Positions 863 to 63,457 of a stretch of DNA of 64,000 nucleotides are shown here, one piece after another. A program made the translations under genes and the position numbers. How positions within the stretch are numbered: the first letter of the stretch is position 1; every line of letters starts with the position of its first letter. The notes under the pieces are model-generated. The model saw nothing but the letters and a program-made list of their open reading frames with translations, was not told where the DNA came from and ran no database searches. The stretch comes from a virus. Location: the IMG/VR virus record IMGVR_UViG_3300045988_188298, positions 1 through 64,000 of that record; one strand, 5' to 3'.

Positions 863-905
863 TTTATAATAGTCGTTGTAAATTATTTTACAACTATTAT
901 TATTT
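863..905 (+). promoter_or_regulatory. Conserved promoter module: TATAAT, then TTGTAAA, then TTTTACAA, then an AT-rich tail
   Basis: TATAAT at 865-870, TTGTAAA at 876-882, TTTTACAA at 886-893. Same architecture repeated upstream of at least 20 genes in the window. Confidence 0.55.
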
Positions 906-928
906 TTTAACATAAAGGAGTTTTTATA

Positions 929-1576
929 ATGAGAGTAAAAAACTTATTCAATGAACAATCATTTTTCTTCAACCCTAAAGGAAATCATCTAATTGTTGGT
1001 GAAAACGGAACAGGAAAAAGTAAATTTCTGGAGGCCTTGCGTCGTCCTGATGATATTGATACATTTGAGATTGATATGAATCTCAATAACAAAGGAGAAA
1101 AAGTTGAATTTATAGAGCCAGTATTTAATTATTCTGATTTGGGATTATCTAAATTGGTTCACCAATTTTATCGTCATAAGCTTTGTGACGGAGATGTGTA
1201 CGATAAGGTCTTAGATGTTCTTAAATCTTTTCCCGGACTTAAAGATGTTTTAGAGCAAGAAATTGACTGGCGTTATGATGAGTATGACGCTAGTTCAGGG
1301 CAGAAAGAAATTATCCGTATAATTGTTTCGTCAGCGCTGCTAATTCTTGATTCGAAATCTGAGGGTTCACATATTCATCTTTTGTTTGACGGACTAGGCT
1401 CTCAACTAAGCTCTTCAAATGCTGAAAAGCTTCCTGAAGCATTGTTAGATGTTATTGAATTTCTGGATTACTTATACCCTGAATTGCCAAAGACCAATAT
1501 CTCAGTAGTGACATACAACGAAAAGATACAGATGTTCTTTTTGACTCAAAAAGGTTTCAATCTTGTAAGAATGTAA
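929..1576 (+). CDS. Small P-loop NTPase (Walker A GENGTGKS)
   Basis: RBS AAGGAG 8 nt upstream. Walker A motif and a downstream hydrophobic-Asp Walker B-like LLFDG. Own promoter module and terminator. Confidence 0.5.
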   Translation: MRVKNLFNEQSFFFNPKGNHLIVGENGTGKSKFLEALRRPDDIDTFEIDMNLNNKGEKVEFIEPVFNYSDLGLSKLVHQFYRHKLCDGDVYDKVLDVLKSFPGLKDVLEQEIDWRYDEYDASSGQKEIIRIIVSSALLILDSKSEGSHIHLLFDGLGSQLSSSNAEKLPEALLDVIEFLDYLYPELPKTNISVVTYNEKIQMFFLTQKGFNLVRM

Positions 1577-1594
1577 AATCTACATATATTTTGT

Positions 1595-1636
1595 TTAAAG
1601 ACTAGATTTTTAAAATTTTCTAGTCTTTTTTTATTA
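1595..1636 (+). terminator. Intrinsic terminator
   Basis: Hairpin aaagactagattttt...aaaatctagtctttttttatt. Confidence 0.6.
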
Positions 1637-1711
1637 TTTTTATAGCAAATGCGATATTTTCTCAAAAAATATGGTATAATAGACAAAACGATTAAATAAT
1701 AAGGAGATGTA

Positions 1712-2419
1712 ATGAATATGAGGTTATTCATAAGTGAATTAATGAGTGGAAACAATCAATATAATCAACTAAATAGATTCTTTTTTCATCTAACACCGTC
1801 TGGAATATTATTTATGATTTTTTCTTTAATCTTAGTTAGTTTTCTTTTTTGGTTTTTTATTTCCATATACAAGAACACTATTGCAAAAACAAGGTTGTTC
1901 CAAAAACATTTTAAAACAGGTCATTCATCCATTCCTAATTCTGGGTTTGATAAGGTTGATTTTTATTTCATAGGATTTGTTGTTTCACTATTACCAGTCC
2001 TATGTATCATGTCTTTTCTGTTTTCTAATGTCTCTATGTTTCAAGCTTATGCAAGAGAATCAGAGGCCGTTGACAGTCTTCAAAGAAAAGATATTTTTGA
2101 AAACTATGATTCTAAAGTAGTGGTTACAGGCAACTATAGATATTCAAACTATACAGAGAATGAAGTTAAAAATGTGTTTTTAGTCTTAGAGAAAAAAGAT
2201 AAGTCATCTTTTTATTCCAACCCATACTATTTACAACCAGTTAATAAGGTTGAGCTTTCAATTGATGGTGTTGGCGATAGAGGATTTAAGCTCGTTGACA
2301 CAAATGTAGATTTTCTTCCCCCAAGAAAATTCTTTATTAAAAAAGAAGATGCCCCAGAAATTTACAAGAAAATATTAAAATATAAAAAAGAAATAGAATC
2401 AAAAACTGAGAGGAATTAA
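1712..2419 (+). CDS. Membrane protein, member 1 of a tandem paralogue triplet
   Basis: N-terminal TM helices. C-terminal region related to the next two ORFs. Confidence 0.5.
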   Translation: MNMRLFISELMSGNNQYNQLNRFFFHLTPSGILFMIFSLILVSFLFWFFISIYKNTIAKTRLFQKHFKTGHSSIPNSGFDKVDFYFIGFVVSLLPVLCIMSFLFSNVSMFQAYARESEAVDSLQRKDIFENYDSKVVVTGNYRYSNYTENEVKNVFLVLEKKDKSSFYSNPYYLQPVNKVELSIDGVGDRGFKLVDTNVDFLPPRKFFIKKEDAPEIYKKILKYKKEIESKTERN

Positions 2420-2422
2420 ACT

Positions 2423-3082: not shown

Positions 3083-3757
3083 ATGTTTTCAAATATTACA
3101 GAAATTAATCCTATTTTAGAATTGTTTATGTCTAAGAACCCCCCATCATCACTCTTTGTTATTCTGTTTTTTATATATTTAGTATTTTTTGTAGTAATGG
3201 CAGGTTTGTCACTTTTAATTAGTGATTTTACAAGAATAAATAAATACACTCCTTTTGTACGAAAAATAATTTCGTGGCAGAAATGGTTATACATTGTAAC
3301 ATTTATTGCCATATGTCTTGTATTTGTATTTCATTATGAAACCACCAATAAAGCTATTAGAAAAACACCATTAAAATCTGTATTTTCTAGTTATCGTATC
3401 GCTAAAATTAAACAACCAAAAGAATCTGATTCAGCTATAACTTATGATGCTTTTGGAAACCAAAAATCAGAAAGACCAAAAACTCTTTTCAAGGTCTATT
3501 TAGATAAAACAAAAGATGTTAAAAATATAGAGCTGGAACATGATGTTATATTGGAAGTTTCAAAAGTCAATAAAGACAGTTTTGACATTATTCTACCTGA
3601 TGAAAAAGTAGAGACAATTAAAAAGGATGATGCTTTGCAGAAGAGAAGACTGATTAATCTTCTCTTTCTTTTTTTATTTTATAATATTAAATGTAAATCA
3701 TTTTACAATATAAAATTAAAATTTAACAAAAGAAAGGAATCTTGTTTTAAAGGATAA
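3083..3757 (+). CDS. Membrane protein, member 3 of the triplet
   Basis: Same conserved C-terminal block as the 2423 ORF. TM helices at the N-terminus. The stop of one gene is 3-4 nt from the next start. Confidence 0.5.
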   Translation: MFSNITEINPILELFMSKNPPSSLFVILFFIYLVFFVVMAGLSLLISDFTRINKYTPFVRKIISWQKWLYIVTFIAICLVFVFHYETTNKAIRKTPLKSVFSSYRIAKIKQPKESDSAITYDAFGNQKSERPKTLFKVYLDKTKDVKNIELEHDVILEVSKVNKDSFDIILPDEKVETIKKDDALQKRRLINLLFLFLFYNIKCKSFYNIKLKFNKRKESCFKG

Positions 3758-3777: not shown

Positions 3778-4347
3778 ATGAAAAAAGATTATGTTATCCC
3801 AGTCGAATGGACTATTGTGAAGAATGTTAAAGTTTCGGCAGAATCTCTAGATGAAGCAAAAGAACTCGCAGCTTTTGCTTCTGTTGAAACAGGAACATAC
3901 TTGGATGGTTCATACAGAATCAATGAAGAGTTACTTGAAGAATTTGAGGAAAGTCGCAAACAAAAAGAAAACATTGAAAGCAATAAAGAAAAGTTGTTGG
4001 ATAAAACTTTCTCAGACGATTTTCTTTCATCTCTGCCTCTACGTTGGGTATGGGTTGGTAAAGTTGATGCTGTTTTGCCAGATGGTGAAACATGTAAAGC
4101 TGTCAAATTTAGCCGCTCTGAAGGTTGGGGAGTGAAGGCCACAACCACAGAAATGGTTTTCGTACCTCAGGATGAGCCAAATCTTCTAGATGAAGAAAAT
4201 TACTTTGATGTGTACAAAGTTGGTTTCGAGGGTAGTGATTCCCTTTATAAGACCATTGATTTTGTTTCTACATCAAAACTAGAGAGCTACCTCAAAGAAA
4301 ATCTCAACAATATGGCTGAGTTCTTTGATGCCATCTCTAAAAAGTAA
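3778..4347 (+). CDS. Hypothetical acidic protein
   Basis: Long ORF with RBS. Overlapping antisense ORFs are judged spurious. Intrinsic terminator at 4383-4418. Confidence 0.45.
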   Translation: MKKDYVIPVEWTIVKNVKVSAESLDEAKELAAFASVETGTYLDGSYRINEELLEEFEESRKQKENIESNKEKLLDKTFSDDFLSSLPLRWVWVGKVDAVLPDGETCKAVKFSRSEGWGVKATTTEMVFVPQDEPNLLDEENYFDVYKVGFEGSDSLYKTIDFVSTSKLESYLKENLNNMAEFFDAISKK

Positions 4348-7661: not shown

Positions 7662-7703
7662 TTATAATATTCAATGTAAAAACAAGTTTTACAATATTAT
7701 TAT
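7662..7703 (+). promoter_or_regulatory. Conserved promoter module (TATAAT, TGTAAAA, TTTTACAA)
   Basis: attataatattcaatgtaaaaacaagttttacaatattatta lies immediately upstream of the RBS AAGGAGG and ATG at 7728. Confidence 0.55.
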
Positions 7704-10582: not shown

Positions 10583-11236
10583 TTAATAATGTAAATCAAT
10601 CTGTAACTCGCCAGAAACCTTGTGTTCCATATCAAAGATATTAAGCATATCTTCTGAATGAAGATGTTTAATTCGCTTCCTGACATCTTGGTCTACTAAG
10701 TCAGGCAACACCTTAGAGTTCTTCTTAATGTAGTCCACAGGAACGAATTTGTTATTTCCTGTATAATTTTCGATTAAGTCATACAAGAACAAATCCCCAA
10801 GACTTTCAAACAGTGGAACAATTGTGTAACCTGCTGCATCAATAGCGGCTGCACAACTCATTGACTCTACATTTTTATAATCATATAGAGAAACAGCTTT
10901 ATCTAACAGCAAACTCTTTGTCCAATGTCCAAAATCGTTAAGCAATTTATTAAAGTCTCGCTCAACCCAACCGGAACGAAATTCAGCCTGAGTAAGACCA
11001 ACAACAGCATACCCACCGGGCTTAATGACTCCGAAATCAAGAGGCATAATAGTCTTTTCTCCAGACCAACCAACTGATTTCTCCCAGATTTCAGCCTCAA
11101 CGCCATCAAAAGACTTAGATAAAACCTTGAAGAAATGAGGTTGATATTCCTCGTCTAGTTCTATCAATGCAAACACTCCTCCAAGAGGGATATTTTTTAC
11201 AAGCTCTGACGGAGCAAACACAACTGATGATTCCAT
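10583..11236 (-). CDS. Hypothetical protein (217 aa)
   Basis: ORF with RBS AAAGGAGAAT and a promoter module on the minus strand at 11262-11305. Confidence 0.5.
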   Translation of the reverse strand: MESSVVFAPSELVKNIPLGGVFALIELDEEYQPHFFKVLSKSFDGVEAEIWEKSVGWSGEKTIMPLDFGVIKPGGYAVVGLTQAEFRSGWVERDFNKLLNDFGHWTKSLLLDKAVSLYDYKNVESMSCAAAIDAAGYTIVPLFESLGDLFLYDLIENYTGNNKFVPVDYIKKNSKVLPDLVDQDVRKRIKHLHSEDMLNIFDMEHKVSGELQIDLHY

Positions 11237-11261: not shown

Positions 11262-11400
11262 TAAAATAATATATTTGTAAAATGAATAACTTTTACAAAT
11301 AATAGTATAACTGTTATTGATTTATTAATTGTTTTATAATAAGAGATGTAAAACTTTTTATTTTACAAATATATTATTTTTTTTATTTCAGGAAGGAGTA
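11262..11400. promoter_or_regulatory. Divergent promoter region containing two copies of the conserved module, one per strand
   Basis: tgtaaaatgaataacttttacaa on the plus strand is the minus-strand module. gatgtaaaactttttattttacaaatatattat is the plus-strand module. Confidence 0.5.
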
Positions 11401-11406
11401 TTTGAC

Positions 11407-11904
11407 ATGAAAACAAATACTAAAACTAATACTTTTATCAACAACATCAAAGAAATTTTTAAACAGCAAAAAGGCCCAGTAAAAGAATCTGCTTGGGTGG
11501 AATTCTTAAAAGATGTTGAAACTCATATTCTAAAAAAAGACAATAATGGCATTGAACTCATCAAGGCAGAAATTGTTTATGATGATGCAGCAAGCAAAGA
11601 TTTGCAAAAACAAACCCTTATTCTGGGAATTAATATAACTTCAAAAATGGGCAAAGGAATTCCATTGGTTATCAAGTTTTCTTGCCACTTCATTGATGGC
11701 AAACTCTTAATCAAGACAGCCTATAAAGAGCAAAATTCCTCATATGCTCATCAATGGAGAGCTGAAGATAATTATACTTATCTGTTGAGGGAAATTGACT
11801 TCATGTCAGAAAGTCATGAAGCTATGAAAAAGCAATATAACAACTATATTGATTTCATTCAACATGACATTGACAAGTTATTGAGCTTTGCTGATGCACA
11901 CTAA
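11407..11904 (+). CDS. Hypothetical protein. Start placed at the ATG after RBS GGAAGGAG
   Basis: The ORF-track ORF 11329-11904 is trimmed to the ATG that has an RBS. Confidence 0.45.
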   Translation: MKTNTKTNTFINNIKEIFKQQKGPVKESAWVEFLKDVETHILKKDNNGIELIKAEIVYDDAASKDLQKQTLILGINITSKMGKGIPLVIKFSCHFIDGKLLIKTAYKEQNSSYAHQWRAEDNYTYLLREIDFMSESHEAMKKQYNNYIDFIQHDIDKLLSFADAH

Positions 11905-12383: not shown

Positions 12384-12508
12384 TTTATGTTTCTCTATTA
12401 TATTAAAGAAGTCTACTTTTTAGACTTCTTTTTTCTTTGACAACTTATAACGTTTGCGATATAATAGTTTCAGAAATAAAAGTAAAGTATGAGGTGCAGA
12501 TATAGAAT

Positions 12509-12823
12509 ATGTTGTTTTTATTTAATCTAGTAATGTTTACAATTTTCTACTTAATTCTAGATTATTGTTTTGTAACAAATGGAAAGCCAACTATAAACAG
12601 AGTATTGAATAGCTTGGTGTTAATTTTGGGCGTGTTTCTGATGACTGTATTTGATAGATTTTCACTACTTACATTAGTGCTGTCTTTTTATACTCTAACT
12701 CATGGACACCTAGAGTTCAGGAAGTCAAAGGAAAGCCTAGATATTGATTTTTACAAGAAAATCATGAAATTCTCAGTGATTGTTATTCTTGTCTCTCTTG
12801 TGTTACTGGTTATTGGACTATGA
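12509..12823 (+). CDS. Small membrane protein
   Basis: Three predicted TM helices. RBS GAGGTG. Confidence 0.4.
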   Translation: MLFLFNLVMFTIFYLILDYCFVTNGKPTINRVLNSLVLILGVFLMTVFDRFSLLTLVLSFYTLTHGHLEFRKSKESLDIDFYKKIMKFSVIVILVSLVLLVIGL

Positions 12824-15941: not shown

Positions 15942-16154
15942 GTGCGCTGCTTGGAAGACATCCAAAAAATTAAAGCAAAAATTGAATGGCTCTTAGAAAA
16001 CTTTTCTCAGAGCGAAATGGCCAAAGAGACAAACGTACCACAATCTACGTTGTCTTACTTGAAGAAAGGTACTCGCAAAATCCGCAATCTCTCTGTTGGC
16101 ACTGTTCAAGAATTAATTCAATTCTATGACAGGCATCACAAGGAGAAAGAGTGA
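15942..16154 (+). CDS. Short XRE-family HTH regulator (paralogue 1 of 3). GTG start
   Basis: HTH region SQSEMAKETNVPQSTLSYLKKG. Related to the 46284 and 52450 ORFs. Confidence 0.55.
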   Translation: MRCLEDIQKIKAKIEWLLENFSQSEMAKETNVPQSTLSYLKKGTRKIRNLSVGTVQELIQFYDRHHKEKE

Positions 16155-16465: not shown

Positions 16466-16514
16466 AATAGAATAAAATAAAAAGGCCTCTTGATTGCAAG
16501 GGTCTTTTTATTTT

Positions 16515-16560
16515 TCTGAATTGTTTTATAATATACTCTGTAAAAGATTCATTTTACAAA
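16515..16560 (+). promoter_or_regulatory. Conserved promoter module
   Basis: TATAAT at 16517-16522, TGTAAAA at 16529-16535, TTTTACAA at 16542-16549. Followed by RBS AAGGAG and ATG at 16593. Confidence 0.55.
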
Positions 16561-17033: not shown

Positions 17034-17167
17034 CTTTTCATTCTTATTTATTAAATGTCTGAATTTATTTTCAGGCATTTTTTGTTTTTGAAAATCCAAA
17101 TGACTTATAATATATTTTGTAAAAATATTTTACAATATTATTTTAATTTTAAGAAGGAGGTGCTGTT

Positions 17168-17917
17168 ATGGCATCAGAAACAAAAGTAAAAATTGTAGGT
17201 TTTGTACCTTTTGGTGAAATCGTGGATTTTATTGGTTTTGGAATGGAGAATGTTATTGGTTTAGTGTATTTAAAATCTGAAATCATTCAAAAAAGTGAAA
17301 AGCCATATCGTCCACTAACACATTCTGATATTGTTGTGGATGGAACAAAATTAATAGAACAAAAAGTGTTAATAGAAATTCTTTATCACAACAAGAAACA
17401 CAGTATTTTGTATAATTACAAAAATTATATAAAATTCAATATTGATGAAGTCTTCAATAATTTCAAACATGGCACTACGGAATTAAATAATTTCCCTCAG
17501 ACTGAATTAGTCATGGATGCAGATAGTGAAATCCTTGACATCATGCAAAGAATCGCCTATGAATTCAATGGTTACATTGGTGACAATGATGCTTGGTATG
17601 AAAAGGTGAAGGAAGAAGACTTATTCCCTGAAGCTCCAGAAGATACCTATTCACTTCAAATACATGGCATCTTTTATAGCAATCTAAAGAATTTTTCTTT
17701 TGATGAAGCCAAAAATAAAGTTTTGGAATACGTTCACAGCATGAAGGTTTTCTTCTACAATGACAGTTACTATGAAGCAGCACTAGAATCTGTTGAAGAG
17801 TTGACCCCTGAGAATAATGTTCTACGATTGGAAGGGCCAATGAATTACCAACCTCTCATCAAAATCGTAAAAGACAAAAGGAAACAGAATCCTTTCAGAA
17901 AACCAAAACACTCATAA
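17168..17917 (+). CDS. Paralogue family B, member 2 (249 aa)
   Basis: TKVKIVGFVPF near the N-terminus and FNGYIGDNDAWYEKV near the C-terminus. Own promoter module at 17104-17145. Confidence 0.5.
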   Translation: MASETKVKIVGFVPFGEIVDFIGFGMENVIGLVYLKSEIIQKSEKPYRPLTHSDIVVDGTKLIEQKVLIEILYHNKKHSILYNYKNYIKFNIDEVFNNFKHGTTELNNFPQTELVMDADSEILDIMQRIAYEFNGYIGDNDAWYEKVKEEDLFPEAPEDTYSLQIHGIFYSNLKNFSFDEAKNKVLEYVHSMKVFFYNDSYYEAALESVEELTPENNVLRLEGPMNYQPLIKIVKDKRKQNPFRKPKHS

Positions 17918-18002
17918 TGAGTGTTTTTTCTTTTAGTTTTATAATATTACTTGTAATCATTTTTACAAATATTATTTTAAAAACAAAAAGGAGAAAACAA
18001 AA

Positions 18003-18737: not shown

Positions 18738-18846
18738 AACTAAATTTTAAAAAACGCTCTTTATGGGTGTTTTTGTTTTGCTTTATAATAGTAAATGTAA
18801 TCATTTTTACAAATATTATTTAAAAAATAAAAAGGAGAAAACAAAA

Positions 18847-44084: not shown

Positions 44085-44244
44085 TTTTGTTTACCATGTA
44101 TCTCATCTTTATAAATGAGAGCCTTTCTTTTTGTTAATTTTAAAAATAATAATTGTAAAAAGTTTTACATCTTTTATTATAAAACAAAAAAGACTGGTTT
44201 TTCAAAAACGACCAATCTTTTTCTAAAAAAATATTTTAAATTAA

Positions 44245-46290: not shown

Positions 46291-46505
46291 TCTCCTTTTT
46301 CTGGATTATTAGCTTCATTTATATAGTCTTGAACCTTTTCAAGAGTTTCTTCCCTAAGATTTTTAAATTGCTTTCGGCCTAAACGAATCTGTGAAATCGT
46401 TGATGCTCCAATTCCGGTATCTTTTGCCAATCGTCTAACTGGTATATTTTCATTAAATAGTGTTTCTTTAACTTTTTCTGTATCAATAATCATATAGCAC
46501 CTCAC
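46284..46505 (-). CDS. Short XRE-family HTH regulator (paralogue 2 of 3), controller-protein-like
   Basis: HTH region RRLAKDTGIGASTISQIRLG. Located between the methyltransferase and the 472-aa ORF. Confidence 0.55.
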   Translation of the reverse strand: MRCYMIIDTEKVKETLFNENIPVRRLAKDTGIGASTISQIRLGRKQFKNLREETLEKVQDYINEANNPEKGDW

Positions 46506-47548: not shown

Positions 47549-47679
47549 AATAAAAATTTACCTACTTTTATTTATTTTTTATAGCATATTACATTTTATC
47601 ATTTTTTGAAGCATAAAACAAAAAAGAGATGTAAACAATTTATTTTACATCTCTTTTCTATTGAATATTAATTAATTAA

Positions 47680-47897: not shown

Positions 47898-50800
47898 CTA
47901 ATCTTCTTGTTTTTTAGATTTTATTGTTAATCCTAAAGCAACCAATCCAAGAATAGCTCCAAGAACTTGAAGTGTTCCTGTTTCTGTTTGACCAGTTTTT
48001 GGAAGTTCTTTCTTAGGAACTTCAGTCTTAATCACTGATGGTGCAGGAGCAGGAGTTTCGTCTTTCTTAGGTTCTTCTGGGATTTTTAGTTCTTCCAATT
48101 CAACAACAGGAGCGTCTTTTGGAACTTCGGTAACAACTAATTCAGTCAGTTCGTGAACCGGCGCTTCGTTAGGCACTTCGGTCAAGACTTTCTCTGGAAT
48201 TTCATGAATAGGCGCATCAGATGGAATCTCTGTAAGGATTTTCTCTGGCAGCTCATGAATTGGAGCGTCGCCCGGAATTTCAGTCAATACCTTTTCCGGC
48301 AGTTCGTGAATTGGAGATTCAGATGGAACTTCTGTTAGAACTTTTTCTGGCAACTCATGAATAGGAGCATCACCCGGTACTTGTTTTTCAACGCGGACGT
48401 AATAGTGAGTAGAGATATGGTCTTCTACTGTCGTCAGCTTAGAATAGACATATTCCTCACGTTCTCCGATAAACAATGGAGCAAGCACAACTCCTTTGAC
48501 AGTAGGAGCAATTTCTCGCTCTACGCCGTTTTCAACCGTTACGAAACGAGTAACATTAAGTGCACCAAAATCACTAATAGGGGCATTTTCAGGAACTTCT
48601 GAAACGGAGCGGTCATAGTAATGAGTTGTAACTCCATCTTCTTTGACAGTTTTACCGTTATATTGGAAGCTGCCTACATACATAGGAGCTTCATGAGTGC
48701 CCTCTTCAGCAGGTTTCACTTCAATTTCACCATTATCAGTAACAGCAATATAACGAGTAGCTTCACGAACTTCTGGTGTCACACTTGGTGCATCAATAGG
48801 CTTTTCACCTTTTACATAATGATAGTAGTGAGTGGTAATACCAGTCACACCGTCATTGGCATCAGTGTGGTCAAAGAAGTATTGGTGGAAGTCATCACCC
48901 AACCACATAGGGGCAGGAAATGTACCTTTTTGTTCATCACGAATTTCACTAAAGCTGCCATCTTCTTCAATTACCAAGAAACGTGTAATTTCTTGCATTT
49001 CAGGATTCACAGTTGGAGCATCAATTGGCTTATCTTTTTTCACTGCATCATAGTAATGAGTATGAATACCATCTTCAACCTTTGTTTGACCAGAATAATG
49101 ATATTTCTCATTTTGAAGAAATGCAGGAGCTTCATGAATACCTTCAAGAGATGGAGCGATTTCTTCTTCCACACCATTTTCCCCAACGGTTACAAATCGA
49201 GTAACATCAGAGACTTCTCCGGTCATTTTTGGAGCTTCATTAGGAACAGTGGTTTGGATTTTCACATAGTAATGAGTAGTAATTCCAGTTATTCCATCAT
49301 TAGGTGTAGTGTGGTCAAATTGATAGCTTCCAATAATGCTAGGCGCTGGCAGTGTTCCCTCTTGGGTTTCTGCAACCTCTACTTCTTCACCTTGCTCATT
49401 TACAAGAACAAAACGAGTAACTTCACGCATAACTGGTGTTACAGATGGTGCATCTGTAGGTAATTCGTGTGTTTCTGGTGTTGCCGTTGTTTCATAAATG
49501 AAATGTTGGCGAGAAATAGTAAGGCCTGTTGCAGGATTTTCTCCGACCCATGACTTAGGAAGAGTTACACCGTTTTGAACTTCTTTATCTGTAAATCCAA
49601 CAACGCCTGTCCACTTCTTGTTGCCCTTGTATTCAAGCAGCATACGGAAGCCGGCTAATTTATTATTTTCTACAGTTGGCAAAGTTTGCTCAGGAGTGTA
49701 GACACCCGGAGTGTAAGGATTATGTTCTGCATTTTCATCACCATCCCATTCAAAATGGTCAGTCATTTCGTGAGGAGTAATTTTTTCTCCGTTACGCATG
49801 AAGTAAATCTCACCGCTTTCATGGAAGTTCTTGTATACTTCTGTTTCTTCTTCTTTAGTCAACAAGAAATCATAGTAAAGAGATTTTGGTGTTACTCTTG
49901 GTTGTTGTGGCCCTCCAAATCCAAATGGATTTTCTAGACCTGAGACTGGTAATTCTGATGGCCCTAAACCAAACTCATTAACACCGTGGTCAGCAGGTTT
50001 CACATGCAGCAATGTATAATTTCTTACAATTGGCGCGTGCACTTCTTCACCATTAGTATTAGCAAAAGTCAATACCTGACTGAATTCAGATTTTGTCAAT
50101 GTGCTTTCTGGCAAATTAGCCATCCAGCGTGTTACACGAACAGTTGGGTTTGGTGTTTTAGAGTAATAATCACTTGCGTGTTCGCTGCCTTTAACTTCTT
50201 TCGGAAGATAAATTTCTGTTGAAAGTCGGAAACGTTGAGACACACCATACCCAAAATCACCATCCACTTTCAATGTAATTCCTTTACCTCGGCTGATAAA
50301 AGCTCCTGAACCGTAATAATAATTAGGTTTGTCTGGAGAATTCCAGCCTAATTTATATTCACTAGAATTGACTTTGTAGCGTCCTTTAGTCCAGTAATTA
50401 TTTAGGTTATAGAAGTTTTCGGTTTCCGGATTAATTGTTCCGCTGAAATTTTTTACTCCTGAACCCGGAATCTGAACTGCTTTATCGGCTGGGTTGAGAG
50501 TAATACTCTCCCAGTGTCCGCCCGGAGACAGAATTGGCTCTGGTGTATATCTCAATTCCGCTGATTCAAAGAAAATGTTTTTCCCATTGAGGATTGTAAA
50601 TCTACCAATTGTTTCACCTCTGGAATTTAGCTCGTTAAAGCCGTCATAGGTGCTGGTGATTTCATCACCCTCTGGCACACCTGTTTCATCATAATGAGAA
50701 ACATTTCGGAACACTCGAACACGTTGGTTTGGTGAGTACAGCTTAGTTGATTTTACATATGTTTCTCCAGTTTGTACTTCTGGACTTAAAACCTCATTAA

Positions 50801-52097
50801 CAGTTTTCGTTTCACCATTGGCATCCGTATATTCAATGTGAGCAACAAATTTATTCTCGTTTGAAATACGGTGGCCTGTACCATATTCTTTATGAACAGT
50901 ATAACGATACATTTCGTGGACAGCATACAAGGTTTTTCCTGTATTTTCGTCCAATTCTTGTCCATTTTCATCATAGTAATATGACTTAGCTACAATGCGT
51001 TGAGTACCGCCACGCGCAACATCTGAACCGAATAAAACACCGTTATAAGGATTTGCATCAACTTCAGCAATCACATTATGATTAGAACCCAAGCTTCTTT
51101 GTAACTCGAATGTCCGAACAATCTTAGCAATCTTTTTCTTTTCGCCATCAACAATCATATAGCTGTTAGATAGATTGGTATATGTAGCTGTTATACGGTC
51201 AGATTCACGAAATACCACGCGCTGCACACCTGTATCTCCCAATTGAGAAGATACATAATCATTTCGTGTAACTTTTGCAAGTTTTTGGAAACGAAGGTTT
51301 GAATAATCAACTTCATTTGCTGGTTTCTCAAACTCTTTTGATTTTGCTTCGCTCAGATAACGAACTTCACCAGTGATAGCAACCCTTGCATTTTCTTCAT
51401 TCCCAAGATGTAGATTTTGATTCTTCATGGCTTCTCGGATAGCATCACCCTTAGAACTCATGAGTTCTTCATAATCTTTCTTCATTTCTTGGTCAATATT
51501 GAACCGCTCATAGGCAGTGCTATTAATATTTCTTTTCTCTTCGCGAATCCTTTCGTATTCTGACCATTTTTCCATAAGTTGCTGTTTAATCTTTTCAGCT
51601 TCTTGCTTAGACTCTTCTTTTACAGCTTCAAGAGAAGCTTGGTCAGATGGAACTTCTTTTTCAACTTCTTCAACTGTAAAACCGTTTTGGTTAAGATTGT
51701 TTACCAATTCAGTATAACTTCCGTCAACATATTTAGTCGTAGACAAATTTGTATTTGTTGTTGCTCCATCAACCTCGGCAGAGCGTTTAGCTGCGTTCAC
51801 GCGCGTGTAATCGTTATTTTCAACAATTTCACGATTGTCTTGAACATTAGCCGGCAGTGGTGAGTTTTTAACTGCATCAGACAATTGTACACCTGATTGA
51901 CTGTTAAAGTCATCAATGCCTGTATTTACGGTTTGAGAGCTAGTCGGGCTAGTATTTACAGTTTCCTCAGCAGAAACGATTTGCGGAGCAAGAATAAGGC
52001 TTGCACCAAGCATCAAAGACAAAACTCCAATAGCTGTCTTACGGATTCCGAATTTTTCCTTTTTCCCTTGGATTAGATATTGTTTGTAGCTTTTCAT
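47898..52097 (-). CDS. Giant LPxTG surface adhesin (1399 aa) with a YSIRK-type signal peptide, about six 70-aa tandem repeats ending in THYY, and six 12-aa (A/S)PIHELPEKVLTE repeats
   Basis: N-terminal KxYKQ...FGIRKTAIGVLS. C-terminal LPKTG, hydrophobic segment and KSKKQED tail. Internal repeats are visible in the translation. Confidence 0.9.
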   Translation of the reverse strand: MKSYKQYLIQGKKEKFGIRKTAIGVLSLMLGASLILAPQIVSAEETVNTSPTSSQTVNTGIDDFNSQSGVQLSDAVKNSPLPANVQDNREIVENNDYTRVNAAKRSAEVDGATTNTNLSTTKYVDGSYTELVNNLNQNGFTVEEVEKEVPSDQASLEAVKEESKQEAEKIKQQLMEKWSEYERIREEKRNINSTAYERFNIDQEMKKDYEELMSSKGDAIREAMKNQNLHLGNEENARVAITGEVRYLSEAKSKEFEKPANEVDYSNLRFQKLAKVTRNDYVSSQLGDTGVQRVVFRESDRITATYTNLSNSYMIVDGEKKKIAKIVRTFELQRSLGSNHNVIAEVDANPYNGVLFGSDVARGGTQRIVAKSYYYDENGQELDENTGKTLYAVHEMYRYTVHKEYGTGHRISNENKFVAHIEYTDANGETKTVNEVLSPEVQTGETYVKSTKLYSPNQRVRVFRNVSHYDETGVPEGDEITSTYDGFNELNSRGETIGRFTILNGKNIFFESAELRYTPEPILSPGGHWESITLNPADKAVQIPGSGVKNFSGTINPETENFYNLNNYWTKGRYKVNSSEYKLGWNSPDKPNYYYGSGAFISRGKGITLKVDGDFGYGVSQRFRLSTEIYLPKEVKGSEHASDYYSKTPNPTVRVTRWMANLPESTLTKSEFSQVLTFANTNGEEVHAPIVRNYTLLHVKPADHGVNEFGLGPSELPVSGLENPFGFGGPQQPRVTPKSLYYDFLLTKEEETEVYKNFHESGEIYFMRNGEKITPHEMTDHFEWDGDENAEHNPYTPGVYTPEQTLPTVENNKLAGFRMLLEYKGNKKWTGVVGFTDKEVQNGVTLPKSWVGENPATGLTISRQHFIYETTATPETHELPTDAPSVTPVMREVTRFVLVNEQGEEVEVAETQEGTLPAPSIIGSYQFDHTTPNDGITGITTHYYVKIQTTVPNEAPKMTGEVSDVTRFVTVGENGVEEEIAPSLEGIHEAPAFLQNEKYHYSGQTKVEDGIHTHYYDAVKKDKPIDAPTVNPEMQEITRFLVIEEDGSFSEIRDEQKGTFPAPMWLGDDFHQYFFDHTDANDGVTGITTHYYHYVKGEKPIDAPSVTPEVREATRYIAVTDNGEIEVKPAEEGTHEAPMYVGSFQYNGKTVKEDGVTTHYYDRSVSEVPENAPISDFGALNVTRFVTVENGVEREIAPTVKGVVLAPLFIGEREEYVYSKLTTVEDHISTHYYVRVEKQVPGDAPIHELPEKVLTEVPSESPIHELPEKVLTEIPGDAPIHELPEKILTEIPSDAPIHEIPEKVLTEVPNEAPVHELTELVVTEVPKDAPVVELEELKIPEEPKKDETPAPAPSVIKTEVPKKELPKTGQTETGTLQVLGAILGLVALGLTIKSKKQED

Positions 52098-52449: not shown

Positions 52450-52665
52450 TCAGACATCCTTTCTATATTTGTTGTGACTTGTATTAATGAAATTACAAAG
52501 TTTTTTTATTGTTTTCCACGATAAATTCTCTATACTTCTACGGCCGCTCCTAATACTCGATATATTCGAGCTTGGAAATCCCGTAGCATCCTGAATTTCT
52601 TTAGGAGGGATTTCTGATTCAAAGAACAACCATTCAAGGTTTTTCTCTACTTCCTGAACTTTCAT
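52450..52665 (-). CDS. Short XRE-family HTH regulator (paralogue 3 of 3)
   Basis: HTH region IQDATGFPSSNISSIRSG. Conserved C-terminal NLSWKTIKKL, matching NLSVGTVQEL in paralogue 1. Confidence 0.55.
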   Translation of the reverse strand: MKVQEVEKNLEWLFFESEIPPKEIQDATGFPSSNISSIRSGRRSIENLSWKTIKKLCNFINTSHNKYRKDV

Positions 52666-53242: not shown

Positions 53243-53465
53243 AATTTTGGTTAAACTCCTTTCCTTTTTGTAAAATAAAATAATTTTTCGTAAAATAATT
53301 TTTTACAAAGAATATTATAACGATTGTTCATTCTTGTTGATACTATTCAAGCGTTGAAGGTGGCGGAACGTATAGCAGATTTATTTGAGAGTTATAAATA
53401 AACAAAAAAGAGACTTTCGGTCTCTTTTCATTTTATTAGAATTTAAAACATTGACAACCTTAAAG

Positions 53466-54026
53466 TCAAGCAACCCTTCTTTTCTTTCGATTGTTTTTAC
53501 GTCCTGCCTTTTTGTTCTTTGTGACTTTCTTGGATTTAAAGAAAAACTCTTTATTGTTTTCCAATTCATTAAAGTCAAATCGGTTCTCGCCAAAGCTTTC
53601 TCGCCATAGTGCAGCACGGCCCTTGCGATTTTTTTCTTTGATTAGAACTTCTTTTCCTGATTGAGTCAAGAAAAGCTTATTCTTCTTTCTAGAAATAAAT
53701 CCAGCCCGGACTAACACCATCAGCTCTTTTTCGTGTTTATTGTGCAAAAAGTGCCTAAATCCTCGCTTTTTTTGCAACACATAAACACCTTTAAATTTAC
53801 TCCAAGAACTATTATATAAAGCGAAAAATTCAAAGTGATTACTGCAAGTTTCATCAAACAATCGTAACAATAAGAACCGGCTAGGCTTTAATGATGTCCA
53901 ACTATTTTCCTTGTAGATAGCCTGATAAATCATAGACTTAACAGATGGGTCATCAAGGTCAATAGTCTCATATAAATGATTTAACCGTGCCGGGAACAGA
54001 TTTTGGGTATTTTTAACATTTTGCAA
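53466..54026 (-). CDS. Hypothetical protein with a highly basic C-terminal tail
   Basis: ORF. The C-terminus reads KKAGRKNNRKKRRVA. Confidence 0.4.
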   Translation of the reverse strand: MQNVKNTQNLFPARLNHLYETIDLDDPSVKSMIYQAIYKENSWTSLKPSRFLLLRLFDETCSNHFEFFALYNSSWSKFKGVYVLQKKRGFRHFLHNKHEKELMVLVRAGFISRKKNKLFLTQSGKEVLIKEKNRKGRAALWRESFGENRFDFNELENNKEFFFKSKKVTKNKKAGRKNNRKKRRVA

Positions 54027-54083
54027 TAAATTTTAATTTTTTTAACTTATTTTCGACAACCTTCTTTATATTTGATAAACTAA

Positions 54084-54788
54084 ATGAAAGAAAGGAGGCG
54101 TTTTATTTTGTATAAAAAGTCAATGATTTTAAATAAATCAACTTATAAGACAGGAGAAGTCGCTGCTCTTCTAGGAGTATCAATTCAAACTGTTATCAAT
54201 TATTGTGAGATGGGGCACATCCCCTTTTATAAAACAGAACATGGGCATCGTCGTATTCTTGCGGAGGACGTTTACAATTACCTAGTTTCTCTAAATATGG
54301 CGTATGATGAAAATTCTAATTCTAATGATACAAATTCTACTTATACTAAATCAGACGTAATCTATGCTCGTGTATCTACACATAAGCAAGCAGAACGAGG
54401 TGATTTAGAGCAGCAAGTGGAAAAAGTAATGTTGTATGCAATTCATCAAAACGTAAACAACCTCATTGTTAAAACAGATATTGCTTCAGGGTTGGATGAT
54501 AATCGTAAAAATCTACTCTCTTTAATTGATATGGTACAAAAAGGGGAGGTTTCTCGAATTTTTGTTTTAGATAAAGACCGTTTAACTAGCTTTGGTTATC
54601 CTTACTTGAAGAAAATTTGCGACTTCCATGGAGTCTCTATCATTGTTGTTTTAGATGAGATTGACATTAAAACTCAATCAGAAGAACTGGCAGAGGATAT
54701 TATCACTCTCATTCATTCTTTTTCAGAGAAATTATATGACCTAAGACAAAAAATTAAGAAAGAAATAAAATGTAATGAAGAAAGTTAA
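54084..54788 (+). CDS. tnpA: IS607-family TnpA serine recombinase (MerR-like HTH plus resolvase catalytic domain)
   Basis: HTH region YKTGEVAALLGVSIQTVINYC. Catalytic VIYARVSTHKQ. The true start is probably the internal TTG or ATG after RBS AAGGAGG. Confidence 0.9.
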   Translation: MKERRRFILYKKSMILNKSTYKTGEVAALLGVSIQTVINYCEMGHIPFYKTEHGHRRILAEDVYNYLVSLNMAYDENSNSNDTNSTYTKSDVIYARVSTHKQAERGDLEQQVEKVMLYAIHQNVNNLIVKTDIASGLDDNRKNLLSLIDMVQKGEVSRIFVLDKDRLTSFGYPYLKKICDFHGVSIIVVLDEIDIKTQSEELAEDIITLIHSFSEKLYDLRQKIKKEIKCNEES

Positions 54789-56016
54789 ACAAGAACCTGA
54801 GATTATCTTATCTGAAAGACATATCATCTCATCTTCTCACCCTTATTTTTCAGAGTGTGACCACTTGACATTCTTAGGGAAGAATTTATATAACGCAACT
54901 CTATTTTATCAACGAGCTTCTTTTTTCAAAAAAGAATTTCAAAACTACTATGCTGTAAATAAAGTTTTCACCCATGAAAATCAGATAGATTACCGAGCTT
55001 TGCCTGCTAAAGTTTCAAAACAAGTTCAGATGCTAGTAGATAAAAGTTTTAAAAGTTACTTTGCTTTAGTGAGGAAAAAGGTTAAAGGAGAATATAGCTC
55101 TCCTGTCCGTATCCCTCGTTATTTGCACAAAACAAAAGGGCGTTGCACCCTCCCTTATCCTAAAGATGCTTTATCTTTGAAGAATGAGGGAGTAGTTGCA
55201 CTTTCTAAGACAGGAATTAGAATCCAAACGAAAATTAAAAGAGAAAAAATACAAGGTGCTCGCATAGTTCCTAAAGGAAACCATTTTGTTATTGAGATTC
55301 TTTATAAAGAGCAAAAGAAGAAACCTGTATCTGAGAAGATTCAGAACGTTGCTTTTATTGACCCCGGTTTAAACAACTTAATGACCGTGACCAGCAATGT
55401 CTGTTCCCCTCTTCTATATAGCGGTAAGAACTTAAAGTCAATGAACCAGTTGGCAAATAAAAAGATAGCACAAGTGAAAAGTTCTTTGAGCAAACGAGGG
55501 TTATATAGTTCTCCCCTTTTAATTTCTATTTACAACAAAAGGAACAGACGTATAAAAGATTGTTTACACAAAATATCAACTCATTTAGTGAATCAATTCG
55601 TTTCGCACAAGATTGATACCGTTATTTTTGGACATAATCTAGGGCAGAAACAAGACATTAAATTAGGCGTTGTTACCAATCAAAATTTTGTGCAAATTCC
55701 TTTTTATCAGCTCATTACTCTCTTGCAATATAAATGTGAATTGCAAGGCATCCGCTTTATAACAACAGAAGAATCTTATACCAGTAAGTGCAGCTTCTTG
55801 GATTTAGAAGAAATTGCTGAACAAAAAGAATATGTAGGCAAAAGAGTGAAGCGTGGCCTTTTTCAATCAAAAGAAGGTGTCCAGATTAACGCTGATGTAA
55901 ATGGCTCTTTGAATATTGGAAGGAAATATTTAACGAAACTAGGTCTTTATACAGATACTTTACATAAGGAATTAATTTATCACATGGCAAATCCTAAACG
56001 AATTTGTCTAGCTTAA
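54775..56016 (+). CDS. tnpB: IS607-family TnpB (RuvC-like RNA-guided nuclease type)
   Basis: PRYLHKTKGR motif and RuvC-III NADVNGSLNIG. Overlaps the tnpA stop. Confidence 0.9.
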   Translation: MKKVKQEPEIILSERHIISSSHPYFSECDHLTFLGKNLYNATLFYQRASFFKKEFQNYYAVNKVFTHENQIDYRALPAKVSKQVQMLVDKSFKSYFALVRKKVKGEYSSPVRIPRYLHKTKGRCTLPYPKDALSLKNEGVVALSKTGIRIQTKIKREKIQGARIVPKGNHFVIEILYKEQKKKPVSEKIQNVAFIDPGLNNLMTVTSNVCSPLLYSGKNLKSMNQLANKKIAQVKSSLSKRGLYSSPLLISIYNKRNRRIKDCLHKISTHLVNQFVSHKIDTVIFGHNLGQKQDIKLGVVTNQNFVQIPFYQLITLLQYKCELQGIRFITTEESYTSKCSFLDLEEIAEQKEYVGKRVKRGLFQSKEGVQINADVNGSLNIGRKYLTKLGLYTDTLHKELIYHMANPKRICLA

Positions 56017-56120
56017 ATTAAAACAAATTAAATAAAAGTAAAACATGATTAGATTAGTCTATCTAGGATTGTTTAGAGGGTAGTCGCAGTCGCCCCAACT
56101 CTGACTTAGAATAAAATAGT
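56017..56120 (+). ncRNA. Candidate omega-RNA / right-end region of the IS607 tnpB
   Basis: ORF-free. gattagattagtctatctagg...agagggtagtcgcagtcgcc is similar to the region after the orphan IS607-type tnpB at 24672. Confidence 0.35.
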
Positions 56121-56286
56121 TTTTTGTTTTGTAAGTAGGGTGAGAAACAACAAATATATTGTTGGAAACTTTGATTTTTCTTAATAAATTAGAGAACTGT
56201 AAGTTTTTTGAACATTACTTATATATCCATCCTATAAAAATAGTATTTGCAAAATGACAAGTGATTTTACAAATACTATCATAACA

Positions 56287-59178: not shown

Positions 59179-59317
59179 ATTCTTATGACCTCCTTAAAAA
59201 TAAAAATAATATTGTAAAATTAAATAAAAGTTTTACATCAAATATTATATAGCAAAAATAAAAAAAGAGAGTTAATGTAATAAAAACTCTCTTTTAACTA
59301 AAATGAAACAAAACAAA

Positions 59318-60253: not shown

Positions 60254-60361
60254 ATTTTTAATTCTCCTTTTTATAAAATATTTTAATATATTGTAAAATG
60301 ATTTACACACTTTATTATAAAACAAAAAAGCCATTCAAAACGAATGACTTTTGTTTTATTA

Positions 60362-61720: not shown

Positions 61721-61770
61721 TTATTTTTCCTCCTATACTTAAAGGGCTGAATGTCACAGTTGTTCCATTT

Positions 61771-62181
61771 TTATTTAACTGTGACCAAATCATATATAAA
61801 GCTTTGCGAATATTTTTTAGCTTTATATAAAGTTTCAAAACTAACATTCCCAGACTTCAAATCCAACAATTCTTTTTTTCTCAACCCCATATGCTTGAGC
61901 TTTGAATCTGAATTCAACTCTGGAAAATTATCCATTAGAGACTTCAATGCTTTTTGAGCATAGACGTATTGTTTCTGTGGGTCTGTGGTAGACGGCACAC
62001 ATTCACAATAGCTGATTGCTGTTTCAAAAACAACAATCCCTCTCTGAATTAGCGACAAGATTTCAAGTTTTTCAACCACTTGTGTAGTTTCCTGAAAAAC
62101 CTTTAGCTCTTGTTCAGCTAATTCTTTTTTGTTTATTAACTTTGCCCTCCTTTCCTGAAGGTCTTTGATGTAATCAATCAT
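61771..62181 (-). CDS. Hypothetical protein
   Basis: ORF with a promoter module at 62215-62270. Confidence 0.4.
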   Translation of the reverse strand: MIDYIKDLQERRAKLINKKELAEQELKVFQETTQVVEKLEILSLIQRGIVVFETAISYCECVPSTTDPQKQYVYAQKALKSLMDNFPELNSDSKLKHMGLRKKELLDLKSGNVSFETLYKAKKYSQSFIYDLVTVK

Positions 62182-62294
62182 ATATATTACACCATCCTTT
62201 CCTTTTGATTTTTAAATAAATAATATTGTAAAATAATAATTTACAAAATATATTATAAAACAAAAAACACCTAAAATAGGTGTTTTAAATTAAA

Positions 62295-62903
62295 TTAAGC
62301 ACGTTTCCGTCTATTTCTAAAATCTACGATTTTAGTGTCTCCATTACTTTTCAAGAGAGAGTAACGGAATCTATACCTTGTTACAACAATGTTATGTTGT
62401 CGTTTAAAACCTTCGACTTTTTTAAGCTTTGGAACTACAAACTTATACGGCTCAGGTGTTTCGCACAGTCGATAAAAACTACGTTTTGAGCGCTTTTCAA
62501 TGACCATTCTTGCATCTTCATAAGAAATGAAGAACTTGTTATCATAAATAACTTTATGAAGAATTTTCTCTTTGTTTTGAGCTCCTTCAAAGATATATTC
62601 CAAGAACATAGTGTCAGCCTCATAACGAGAAATAACTCCTGAAAACACAGTAACGAAAGACATTCTATCCATATACAATGATTTATGAATTTCATGTCTA
62701 TAAACATCATCTAGCCGTCCACTTCTGACTAAAATGACTTTCAAGTCTTCATCTTGATTGCCATTGTCAAATAGCAAAACACGATAGCCACTATCCAAGC
62801 CTCCTCGTTCAAAACGTGTCAAAACATATCCCTCATTGAACAATCTCTCAGTTTCTTTAGAGATGACTTTCGCAATCTCAAATTCTGGGTTGATAATTTT
62901 CAT
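62295..62903 (-). CDS. Hypothetical protein
   Basis: ORF with a promoter module at 62925-62975. Confidence 0.4.
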   Translation of the reverse strand: MKIINPEFEIAKVISKETERLFNEGYVLTRFERGGLDSGYRVLLFDNGNQDEDLKVILVRSGRLDDVYRHEIHKSLYMDRMSFVTVFSGVISRYEADTMFLEYIFEGAQNKEKILHKVIYDNKFFISYEDARMVIEKRSKRSFYRLCETPEPYKFVVPKLKKVEGFKRQHNIVVTRYRFRYSLLKSNGDTKIVDFRNRRKRA

Positions 62904-63054
62904 ATCATTTCCACTCCTTTTTTATTGTAATTAAAATAATTTTGTAAAAATAAATCTTTTACATATTCTATTATAACAAAAACAAAGGTTTCGTTTAACC
63001 ATGCGCTTAACTTCAAAAAACAACATCAAAAACAGAAAAAACAAAAAAAGGCTA

Positions 63055-63327
63055 TTAATAGCCTTTTATTTTTACACGATAGGTACTAAATTGAAAAAAA
63101 TGAGTAAAGTTGAATTGTCCAATAACAATAATTACCATACGAGGAATATCTAGGTTTTCATTCCCGATACCCAGTAAACACATAGTGATGCAAAGCATAC
63201 TTGCGAAAATCCCAAAAATATATGAAATGTTTGCTTTTATGAATTTGTGTTTATCAAAACAATTCACCAAAGCCCAAACAACATTAACACCAAGCAACAC
63301 CATATAAACAATATAAGAAATTTCCAT
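63055..63327 (-). CDS. Small membrane protein (three TM helices)
   Basis: Hydrophobic. Promoter module at 63355-63400. Confidence 0.4.
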   Translation of the reverse strand: MEISYIVYMVLLGVNVVWALVNCFDKHKFIKANISYIFGIFASMLCITMCLLGIGNENLDIPRMVIIVIGQFNFTHFFQFSTYRVKIKGY

Positions 63328-63457
63328 TTTTTCTCCTTATTTTTAGATAATTAAATAATAGTTGTAAAAAAACATTTACATCATTTATTATAATTCAAAC
63401 AAACAAGAAAAAAGCACCTGTAGAAACAGATACTTTTATTTAATTTTATTTTAAAAA

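Follow-up and report, generated by a model that had tools for sequence, protein, structure and literature searches.

Why should one short inverted repeat stand at a fixed place in front of so many genes of a single mobile element, and what reads it? The question is raised by a 64,000-nt stretch of DNA (IMG/VR record IMGVR_UViG_3300045988_188298, positions 1 to 64,000; hereafter the window), which comes from a ~235-kb plasmid-like extrachromosomal element of oral bacteria that looks like a giant plasmid of the Inocle type. A preliminary description had reported a palindromic promoter module at 18 sites in the window. The module is a real, strongly non-random and element-specific promoter-leader cassette, a new variation on 5'-hairpin leaders and on plasmid- or phage-wide promoter classes. 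The explanation favoured here, to which a probability of about 0.5 is given, is that a sigma-A-type -10 promoter would start the mRNA at the G of TGTAA, and that the blunt 5'-terminal hairpin at this end would protect or standardise the transcript.

Occurrence and placement of the module

The module occurs 23 times in the window (Table 1), since all 18 of the sites reported earlier were recovered and five were added, at 3680, 22863, 43628, 53319 and 56283. The inverted core TGTAA-N3-20-TTACA is found 22 times against 2.5 expected, and the longer form TTGTAAA-N4-16-TTTACAA 4 times against 0.1 expected. More specifically, the composite of -10 element and repeat, TATAATA-N5-TGTAA-N3-16-TTACA, is present 18 times, whereas 100 dinucleotide shuffles gave an expectation of 0.00; the pattern thus occurs well above chance for AT-rich DNA. 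Every one of the 23 copies is intergenic and oriented to the downstream gene, and the distance from the end of the -10 element to the start codon is 60 +/- 4 nt across copies. Terminators lie upstream in excess of expectation (28 against 7.7 expected within 7-24 kb), the module usually following directly on the terminator of the preceding gene, while the repeat without a -10 element is limited to three chance-level cases.

The module-bearing units form a large co-ordinated set, as had been supposed, although the statement that almost every gene carries the module was too broad. When units are defined as genes with at least 60 nt of upstream spacer, the window holds ~52 transcription units, and the module is present at 23 of them (about 40%). 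Another 15 units have a second class of promoter, (t/a)TGnTATAAT(a), that lacks the inverted repeat, and one has a perfect TTGACA-17-TATAAT. Because the module promoters never have the TG, the two promoter classes are mutually exclusive.

Across 185,579 species genomes, contigs of this element are the only ones on which the stringent pattern recurs in several copies. Accessory regions such as the window hold 0.28-0.39 modules per kb; the core of replication and secretion genes holds 0.05-0.13 per kb, and these densities imply roughly 50-60 copies per element. Short contigs were also checked as possible transcript-derived sequences whose ends might mark start sites; they proved to be ordinary metagenomic fragments spanning several genes.

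Architecture of the cassette

The anatomy given below rests on some 60 families of orthologues with about 200 copies in all; the distance between -10 element and repeat was examined in the 23 window copies and in about 200 copies of relatives. The cassette is ~60 bp long and runs in the order -10 element, hairpin repeat, AU-rich leader and strong ribosome site, with the consensus (terminator T-tract)-TTTgTTT-TATAATA-N5-TGTAA(AA)-loop-(TT)TTACA-A-(0-5 nt)-ATTATTT-...-AAGGAG-ATG. The hexamer TATAAT is perfect in 20 of the 23 window copies, the remainder being TATACT (twice) and TATGAT (once). The A directly after it is invariant, so that the -10 element reads TATAATA, and positions -13 to -19 are T-rich, with a conserved TTT at -17 to -19 and a frequent G at -16. 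Neither a standard nor an extended -10 accounts for the invariant A (-6 from the predicted start) or for the conserved -16 to -19 positions. Positions -30 to -40 carry no information, and the TG extension is absent, positions -15/-14 being T/T; the earlier view of a promoter-associated module with a -10 but no -35 is thus upheld. A generic promoter scan showed no enrichment (73 found, 69 expected). The possibility that TTGTAA serves as a -35 and TATTAT as a -10, in either orientation, was rejected on inspection because the spacing would range over 13-24 nt.

Downstream of the hexamer, the spacer to the left arm consists of five unconserved nucleotides (0.22 substitutions per site between orthologues), yet TATAAT and TGTAA stand 6 nt apart in every one of about 200 copies. 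TGTAAA forms the left 6-mer in 66 of 87 copies, and the right T-run with TTACA is kept in >90%. The gap between the TGTAA and TTACA cores differs even among orthologues, and in this respect the inverted repeat of variable spacing stands as first described; its range is, however, 5-15 nt with a mode of 6 rather than 6-12 nt. Between the 6-mers there are 3-13 nt (mode 4) and never fewer than 3, and the loop changes freely in length and sequence among orthologues, with 25% gap columns, as a hairpin requires. The loop-proximal positions are asymmetric (C/A/G on the left, A on the right), and the spacings have no helical periodicity, the modes between 5-mers being 6 and 9-12 nt.

After the hairpin, (T)ATTATT follows within 0-5 nt in 64% of families as against 15% in shuffles, and the leader then continues with an A-rich stretch, AAGGAG and the start codon. 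On the opposite strand the -10-like box is imperfect and lies at a variable 3-8 nt from the repeat, so that the module is directional. The proposal that it reads nearly the same on both strands therefore holds only at the level of the motifs; the reverse spacing is not fixed and the outer halves do not covary.

Selection for pairing in the inner repeat

The apparent palindrome has an outer and an inner part, and these behave differently. The outer part, taken as a long hairpin or cruciform in which TATTATT would be the partner of TATAATA and the downstream flank that of the spacer, was rejected: in 64 families the true pairs were no better than permuted ones (z = -0.35 and -1.29; p = 0.18-0.8), so the whole-module palindrome is not under pairing selection. 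Single examples of such outer pairing, in the modules at 865 and 56283, are persuasive when seen singly. Stem positions 6-9 likewise gave no covariation beyond composition, and are uninformative because both arms are conserved 7-mers.

The arms themselves are more revealing. About 12 independent single-arm transitions separate the orthologues (nine A>G and three or four C>T), and in each case what was a Watson-Crick pair becomes G·U when read on the sense strand. The sole T>C falls on the first T of TGTAA (position 0), which is predicted to be untranscribed. Pair-keeping changes account for 12 of 13 transitions where opportunity was equal (6 keeping and 6 breaking over 12 arm positions; p about 0.002), and pair-disrupting transitions number 0-1 against about 12 that preserve pairing as G·U. 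The flanking columns have no such excess of A>G, with 32 T>C against 17 A>G.

A second line of evidence is provided by the family of the module at 22863, which departs from the consensus arms and still has 35 of 35 cells paired in five orthologues. Two of its pairs are changed on both sides (A-U to G-C and G-C to A-U) and three are changed to G·U, while slid registers give pairing of at most 49%. Judged by these substitution patterns, sense-strand (RNA) pairing in the inner repeat is under selection, because a cruciform or a double-stranded operator would not tell G·T from A·C. Of the factors that the preliminary description had offered to account for the module, the 5'-untranslated hairpin UUGUAA...UUACAA is the one favoured by the G·U-preserving substitutions and the compensatory changes. 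A promoter formed by single-stranded DNA, as in Frpo, was considered and rejected, because both strands of the window carry modules and the G·T changes would read A·C on the template. In 22 of the 23 leaders, folding predicts this hairpin as the 5' structure.

A protected 5' end as the favoured explanation

Under the favoured explanation, the module would be the standardised promoter-leader cassette of one family of ~235-kb plasmid-like elements. The extended -10 element (TTT-TATAATA) would be read by host sigma-A-type RNA polymerase without a -35 or TG, as its sequence suggests. A pyrimidine at -1 and a purine at +1 are the preferred start context in bacteria, and because the invariant T-G at nt 7-8 after the hexamer offers this context, the mRNA probably begins at the G of TGTAA. 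A start at this predicted position would leave the lone T>C outside the RNA and would open the mRNA with a blunt hairpin. The first 16-25 nt are predicted to fold to 6-7 bp (GUAAAA-loop-UUUUAC) with no unpaired nucleotide at the 5' end, and would be followed by the AU-rich AUUAUUU and then by the strong AAGGAG about 35 nt downstream.

In the Bacilli and Firmicutes, 5'-end occlusion and a strong Shine-Dalgarno sequence are the usual mRNA stabilisers and block 5' entry by RppH and RNase J1, and B. subtilis RppH (BsRppH) requires at least 2 unpaired 5' nucleotides (PMC3997798). The cassette would combine the two features, and since 5' pairing and a strong Shine-Dalgarno sequence block both enzymes, its most likely function would be to equip AT-rich transcripts, each with its own terminator, with a protected 5' end and a leader that are alike from one unit to the next. 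The conservation of the arms may be explained in part, the TG by start-site selection and the right arm by complementarity, but only in part.

Precedents for such a leader exist in other systems. The aprE and ermC leaders of B. subtilis, the ompA and papA leaders of E. coli and the phi10 leader of T7 are 5'-terminal stem-loop stabilisers of mRNA, and in T7 the conserved +1 region forms a 5' hairpin, which is part of a repeated phage promoter because the initially transcribed bases are fixed. Like the stabilisers, the module would place a short hairpin at or very near the mRNA 5' end, ahead of a strong ribosome site, and like the T7 sequence its hairpin belongs to a repeated, element-specific promoter cassette. 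Unlike T7, however, the hairpin is attached to a host-type -10 element rather than to a phage polymerase promoter. In contrast to the stabilisers, the stem is only 6-7 AU-rich bp (about -3 kcal/mol) and occurs in about 50-60 copies on a plasmid-like element.

Several observations weigh against the favoured explanation. The hairpins are weak, at -2.3 to -7 kcal/mol and typically about -3, and whole leaders fold no better than shuffles (z about 0). The arms are conserved as sequence (TGTAAAA / TTTTACA), and most families are without compensatory change in the 5-bp core, which is not predicted by a model of pure structure; conservation also extends, whatever the pairing, to the T-run ahead of TTACA and to the A behind it. 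In four or five families a C>A change to TTAAA breaks the only G-C pair while the module is otherwise kept. These sites belong to independent families (window 43628; L003 11618; L105 7001; L042 1500; L197 2572), and its recurrence may point to a mutational hot spot or to selection that has disabled a hairpin or operator several times. The TGnTATAAT promoters of the same element lack a 5' hairpin, so the element's mRNAs do not need one as a rule. Longer loops tend weakly to go with a shorter distance from arm to ATG (r = -0.33, p = 0.012), which suggests an extra constraint on total leader length. Finally, the arm sequence coincides with the half-sites of the catabolite-responsive element (cre), and this leads to the first of the alternatives.

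Alternative explanations

The inverted repeat may instead be a DNA operator placed over the start site. Its ligand would be either the host's catabolite control protein CcpA, binding in the flexible cre_var mode, or a dimeric repressor encoded by the element, and about 40% of units would be shut down jointly, for instance in abundant sugar, in the manner of the KorA/KorB global regulons. The arms TGTAAA and TTTACA are exact canonical cre half-sites, both are kept as sequences and not merely as pairs, the site overlaps the predicted +1, which is the usual place for repression, and a separate class of promoters without the repeat fits two regulatory classes on one element. The repeat also fits the cre_var architecture NxTGTAAA-Yx-TTTACAMx, with which it shares the identical inverted core TGTAAA ... 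TTTACA, a variable spacer and a home in low-GC Gram-positive bacteria, and cre_var is bound by CcpA of C. acetobutylicum, B. subtilis and C. perfringens in electrophoretic mobility shift and lacZ assays (Yang et al. 2017, mBio, PMC5263246). However, sites of the cre_var type lie dispersed over promoters as well as coding regions, their spacers measure 0-40 nt and their outer flanks are complementary (PMC5263246), whereas the left arm of the module is locked 6 nt past the -10 element, its 6-mers are 3-13 nt apart, its complementarity runs inward rather than outward, and its substitutions obey RNA pairing rules. The work on cre_var comes from one laboratory, the sole citing follow-up being from the same group.

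The substitution data are difficult to reconcile with an operator. A double-stranded operator does not predict strand-asymmetric changes in which G·U is kept and C·A avoided, nor the compensatory changes of the 22863 family away from TGTAA/TTACA. Helical periodicity of the spacings and the outer Nx/Mx complementarity of cre_var are lacking, the loop-proximal positions are asymmetric, and a competitor operator has no need of an invariant distance to the -10 element. Canonical cre (WTGNAANCGNWNNCW, 14-16 bp with a central CG) has no perfect match in the window; matches with one mismatch are at chance level (10 against 5.1 expected), none of them lies at a module, and no module has the 2-nt spacing of canonical cre. 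No LacI-family gene was seen among the matches listed for the window and the other loci scanned, which together cover about 60% of the element. An operator would account for the conservation of the arms as sequence and would give the regulon an appealing logic; it is the strongest of the alternatives, though unlikely, and the hairpin and CcpA readings are not mutually exclusive.

Global operator regulons are known on other large plasmids, among them KorA/KorB of RK2 and ArdK/StbA of R388. The module resembles these in that one short palindrome stands at many promoters of one large element and would co-ordinate expression across it. In those systems, however, spacing is fixed and the plasmid repressor is known, whereas the spacing of the module is variable and no repressor has been identified.

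A further reading, distinctly unlikely as it stands, is that the hairpin is an element-specific 5' signature of about 50-60 transcripts, read by one trans-acting factor. This might be an element protein that protects, translates or silences the element's own mRNAs, or host CcpA acting on the same DNA.

The preliminary description had suggested a dedicated factor, and it is conceivable that the module is the promoter of an element-encoded sigma factor or RNA polymerase that reads the extended -10 element (TTTATAATA) together with TGTAAAA, the remaining repeat being secondary. The pattern is element-specific, and in spite of the missing -35 and TG, the 7-bp TATAATA is invariant and the T residues at -13 to -19 are conserved. 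An RpoS-like sigma gene has been reported on Inocle elements (PMC12340149). On the other hand, no sigma or RNA polymerase gene or domain is present among the matches listed for the window and the other loci (about 60% of the element), TATAAT is the housekeeping -10 hexamer, and the right arm, the pairing selection and the variability of the loop would be left unexplained. Candidate regulators of any sort (sigma, LacI-type or other) among the matches listed were limited to three small Xre/Cro-type helix-turn-helix proteins (Table 1), with no link to the module. Phage promoters read by dedicated factors include the T4 late promoters (TATAAATA, read with gp55) and the hairpin promoters of N4, which use a DNA hairpin. 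With these the module shares a -10-only promoter and an element-specific consensus, but its hexamer is the housekeeping one, its hairpin lies downstream of the -10 element and has a variable loop, and the element is not evidently a phage. A dedicated polymerase or sigma factor appears improbable.

It is very improbable that the nascent 5' hairpin and the TATTAT or U-rich stretch behind it form a site of promoter-proximal pausing or attenuation that is governed by an antiterminator-type factor (nut/boxB, put or Q-type). The enrichment of (T)ATTATT directly after the hairpin would suit a pause, TATTAT agrees with the -10 consensus at 5 of 6 positions on the non-template strand, and terminators bracket every unit. 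However, these AU-rich stems, with one G-C pair, are much too weak to terminate transcription, and the terminator scan called none of them an intrinsic terminator or attenuator. A protein that reads the loop, as N does, is excluded by the variability of the loops, TATTAT shifts by about 10 nt relative to the start, and no candidate factor was found.

Lastly, the view that the copies are a mobile palindrome of the kind of miniature inverted-repeat transposable elements (MITE) or repetitive extragenic palindromic (REP) sequences with an incidental -10, or a chance product of AT-rich intergenic DNA, is effectively refuted: the copies are indeed short, palindromic, multi-copy and intergenic, and the element carries IS200/IS605-family transposases, but the expectation by chance is 0.00, orientation and start-codon distance are constant, orthologues keep the functional boxes while flanks, spacer and loop have fully diverged, there are neither target-site duplications nor terminal repeats beyond the boxes, and the repeat is not found away from a -10 element save in the chance-level cases.

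Significance of the cassette

The presence of the cassette at about 40% of units provides an immediate map of the transcription units of the element, and it may be used as a sequence tag for this element family in metagenomes. The combination of terminator, -10 promoter, 5' hairpin and strong ribosome site is also a ready-made portable expression cassette. In addition, the module is a test case for the co-ordination of mobile-element expression by a weak 5'-terminal hairpin or a cre-like operator. If the CcpA reading is true, carriage of the element would be tied to dietary sugar, and the element as a whole would be expressed according to the sugar available in the mouth; if either that reading or the 5' signature is true, a cis-regulatory code would have been described for the first time in elements of this class.

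Nature of the source element

The window has a G+C content of 30-35% and the element as a whole 32%. Protein genes in the window include LPXTG/YSIRK adhesins, an ATP-dependent DNA ligase, DNA methylases, dUTPase, YopX, SocA antitoxins and three TnpB genes of the IS605 family, and the majority of window proteins are without any match. An Rfam search of the window identified a transfer-messenger RNA (tmRNA), a tRNA-Arg and an IS605 omega-type (IS605-orfB-II) RNA; these were the only matches at the gathering score, and no module matched any family.

Nucleotide searches of PLSDB and a phage database gave no match to the window except an insertion sequence (IS) transposase. The window proteins recur on metagenomic contigs of 215-244 kb, several of which are catalogued in IMG/VR, and a metagenome scan by protein alignment led to a single locus. 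Elsewhere, these contigs encode DNA polymerase III alpha, SecA, SecDF, a topoisomerase, a RecD-like helicase, alanine racemase, signal peptidase, sortase, TraX, a partition protein and an actin-like protein. Phage structural families were absent among the PHROG and Pfam matches listed for 76 window proteins and 83 from elsewhere on the element. The gene profile is therefore plasmid-like, although IMG/VR lists the contigs as viral, and a phage context, including the phage early or middle gene array proposed before, is doubtful.

Inocle elements are giant extrachromosomal elements of oral streptococci, and their published description resembles this element in gene repertoire and G+C content (PMC12340149). 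Giant plasmid-like elements of oral bacteria have been recognised only recently, and about 95% of their genes are without known function (PMC12340149). Among GTDB genomes, the element was found only on three contigs binned with a metagenome-assembled genome of an 'uncultured Gemella sp.' (CALIWM010000189.1, CALIWM010000383.1 and CALIWM010000410.1), which are pieces of the element of 113, 56 and 9.5 kb. The binning may be an artefact, or it may point to Gemella (about 31% G+C) as the host in place of Streptococcus.

Features of individual modules

The coordinates of the modules and of the helix-turn-helix proteins are collected in Table 1.

Table 1. Modules and candidate regulators in the window, with coordinates from the first letter of the window
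Feature	Coordinates	Strand	-10 element	Inverted repeat	Gene and remarks
Module 1	865-892	+	TATAAT 865-870	877-892 (TGTAAATTATTTTACA)	start 929, AAA/ABC-like ATPase
Module 2	3680-3707	+	3680-3685	3692-3707	gene 3778-4347; new site
Module 3	7663-7693	+	7663-7668	7675-7693	ATG 7728
Module 4	11276-11309	-	TATACT 11309-11304	11297-11276	gene 10583-11236; back-to-back with module 5
Module 5	11335-11367	+	11335-11340	11347-11367	gene 11407-11904
Module 6	16527-16558	+	16527-16532	16539-16558	ATG 16593; preceded by terminator 16487-16502
Module 7	17106-17134	+	17106-17111	17118-17134	ATG 17168; preceded by terminator 17053-17080
Module 8	17940-17967	+	17940-17945	17952-17967 (TGTAATCATTTTTACA)	ATG 18003; preceded by terminator 17905-17927
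Module 9	18784-18811	+	18784-18789	18796-18811, hairpin as in module 8 (TGTAATCATTTTTACA)	ATG 18847
Module 10	21284-21315	+	21284-21289	21296-21315	ATP-dependent DNA ligase gene 21350-22801
Module 11	22863-22896	+	TATACT 22863-22868	hairpin 22875-22896 (UGUAACUG/CAGUUGCA, U·G pair)	ATG 22948; new site
Module 12	32942-32977	+	32942-32947	32954-32977, 14-nt gap	gene 33011-33805
Module 13	36855-36882	+	36855-36860	36867-36882	gene 36915/36948-37310; long leader with second hairpin
Module 14	43255-43282	-	43282-43277	hairpin 43270-43255 (TGTAAAACATTTTATA)	gene 42885-43220
Module 15	43601-43628	-	43628-43623	degraded, 43616-43601, right arm TTAAA	ATG 43567; new site
Module 16	44154-44181	-	44181-44176	44169-44154	gene 43680-44084; long leader
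Module 17	53289-53319	-	53319-53314	53307-53289	ATG 53242; new site
Module 18	56248-56283	-	TATGAT 56283-56278	hairpin 56271-56248, right arm TTGCA (U·G)	ATG 56215; new site
Module 19	59213-59249	-	59249-59244	59237-59213, 15-nt gap	ATG 59178
Module 20	60292-60319	-	60319-60314	60307-60292	ATG 60253
Module 21	62227-62257	-	62257-62252	62245-62227	gene 61771-62181
Module 22	62943-62975	-	62975-62970	62963-62943	gene 62295-62903
Module 23	63363-63392	-	63392-63387	63380-63363	ATG 63327
Xre/Cro-type HTH (helix-turn-helix) protein	15942-16154
Xre/Cro-type HTH protein	46284-46493
Xre/Cro-type HTH protein	52450-52665

Comparison of orthologues reveals how single modules have changed. Those of module 3 keep the arms with loops of 5, 6, 7 or 9 nt, the right arm of module 14 has undergone C>T by orthology to give G·U, and the right arm of module 17 is TTACG in 6 of 6 orthologues. 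The repeat of module 9 has decayed in some relatives, either to TTAAA or by a 3-nt deletion. The neighbouring genes 17168-17917 and 18003-18737 are paralogous, and the near-identical modules at 17940 and 18784 have the hairpin TGTAATCATTTTTACA in common, which indicates that the cassette was duplicated together with the genes.

Within window 53466-56283, the gene behind module 18 is split by an IS607/IS605-type insertion composed of a serine-recombinase TnpA (54108-54788), a TnpB (54775-56016) and the omega-type IS605-orfB-II RNA (56044-56200). The module and the start codon at 56215 lie on one side of the insertion, and the sequence on the other side (53990-53583) aligns to residues 63-198 of a 231-aa orthologue with 93% identity.

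Other promoters, terminators and genes of the window

Sites of the TGnTATAAT class include those at window positions 1675, 4473, 8898, the 19500s, 26480, 27098, 29029, 35532, 36810, 46531 and 57778. The perfect TTGACA-17-TATAAT promoter (12/12) lies at 12437-12465, directly past a terminator at 12405-12431 and before a gene at 12509-12823.

At 47630-47649 the sequence TGTAAA...TTTACA is contained in a longer stem (GAGATGTAAA...TTTACATCTC) with A- and T-runs at its flanks. It is a bidirectional terminator, the only intergenic copy of the repeat without a -10 element, and it stands behind the gene of a 1399-aa YSIRK/LPXTG surface protein (47898-52097) with a GbpC (glucan-binding or antigen I/II-like) domain. 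The gene of this adhesin lies in a 40% G+C island on a 32% G+C element, which suggests that it was acquired from the chromosome of a streptococcus; the element encodes another GbpC protein elsewhere.

The tmRNA (tag peptide ANNFATDMAA) is carried by the element itself and adjoins the tRNA-Arg(TCT), the two at 30578-31055 (- strand) within a 1.35-kb stretch that has no protein-coding gene. Cumulative GC skew peaks at about 24700 in the window, where gene orientation flips from + to - (convergent), as would be expected at a replication terminus.

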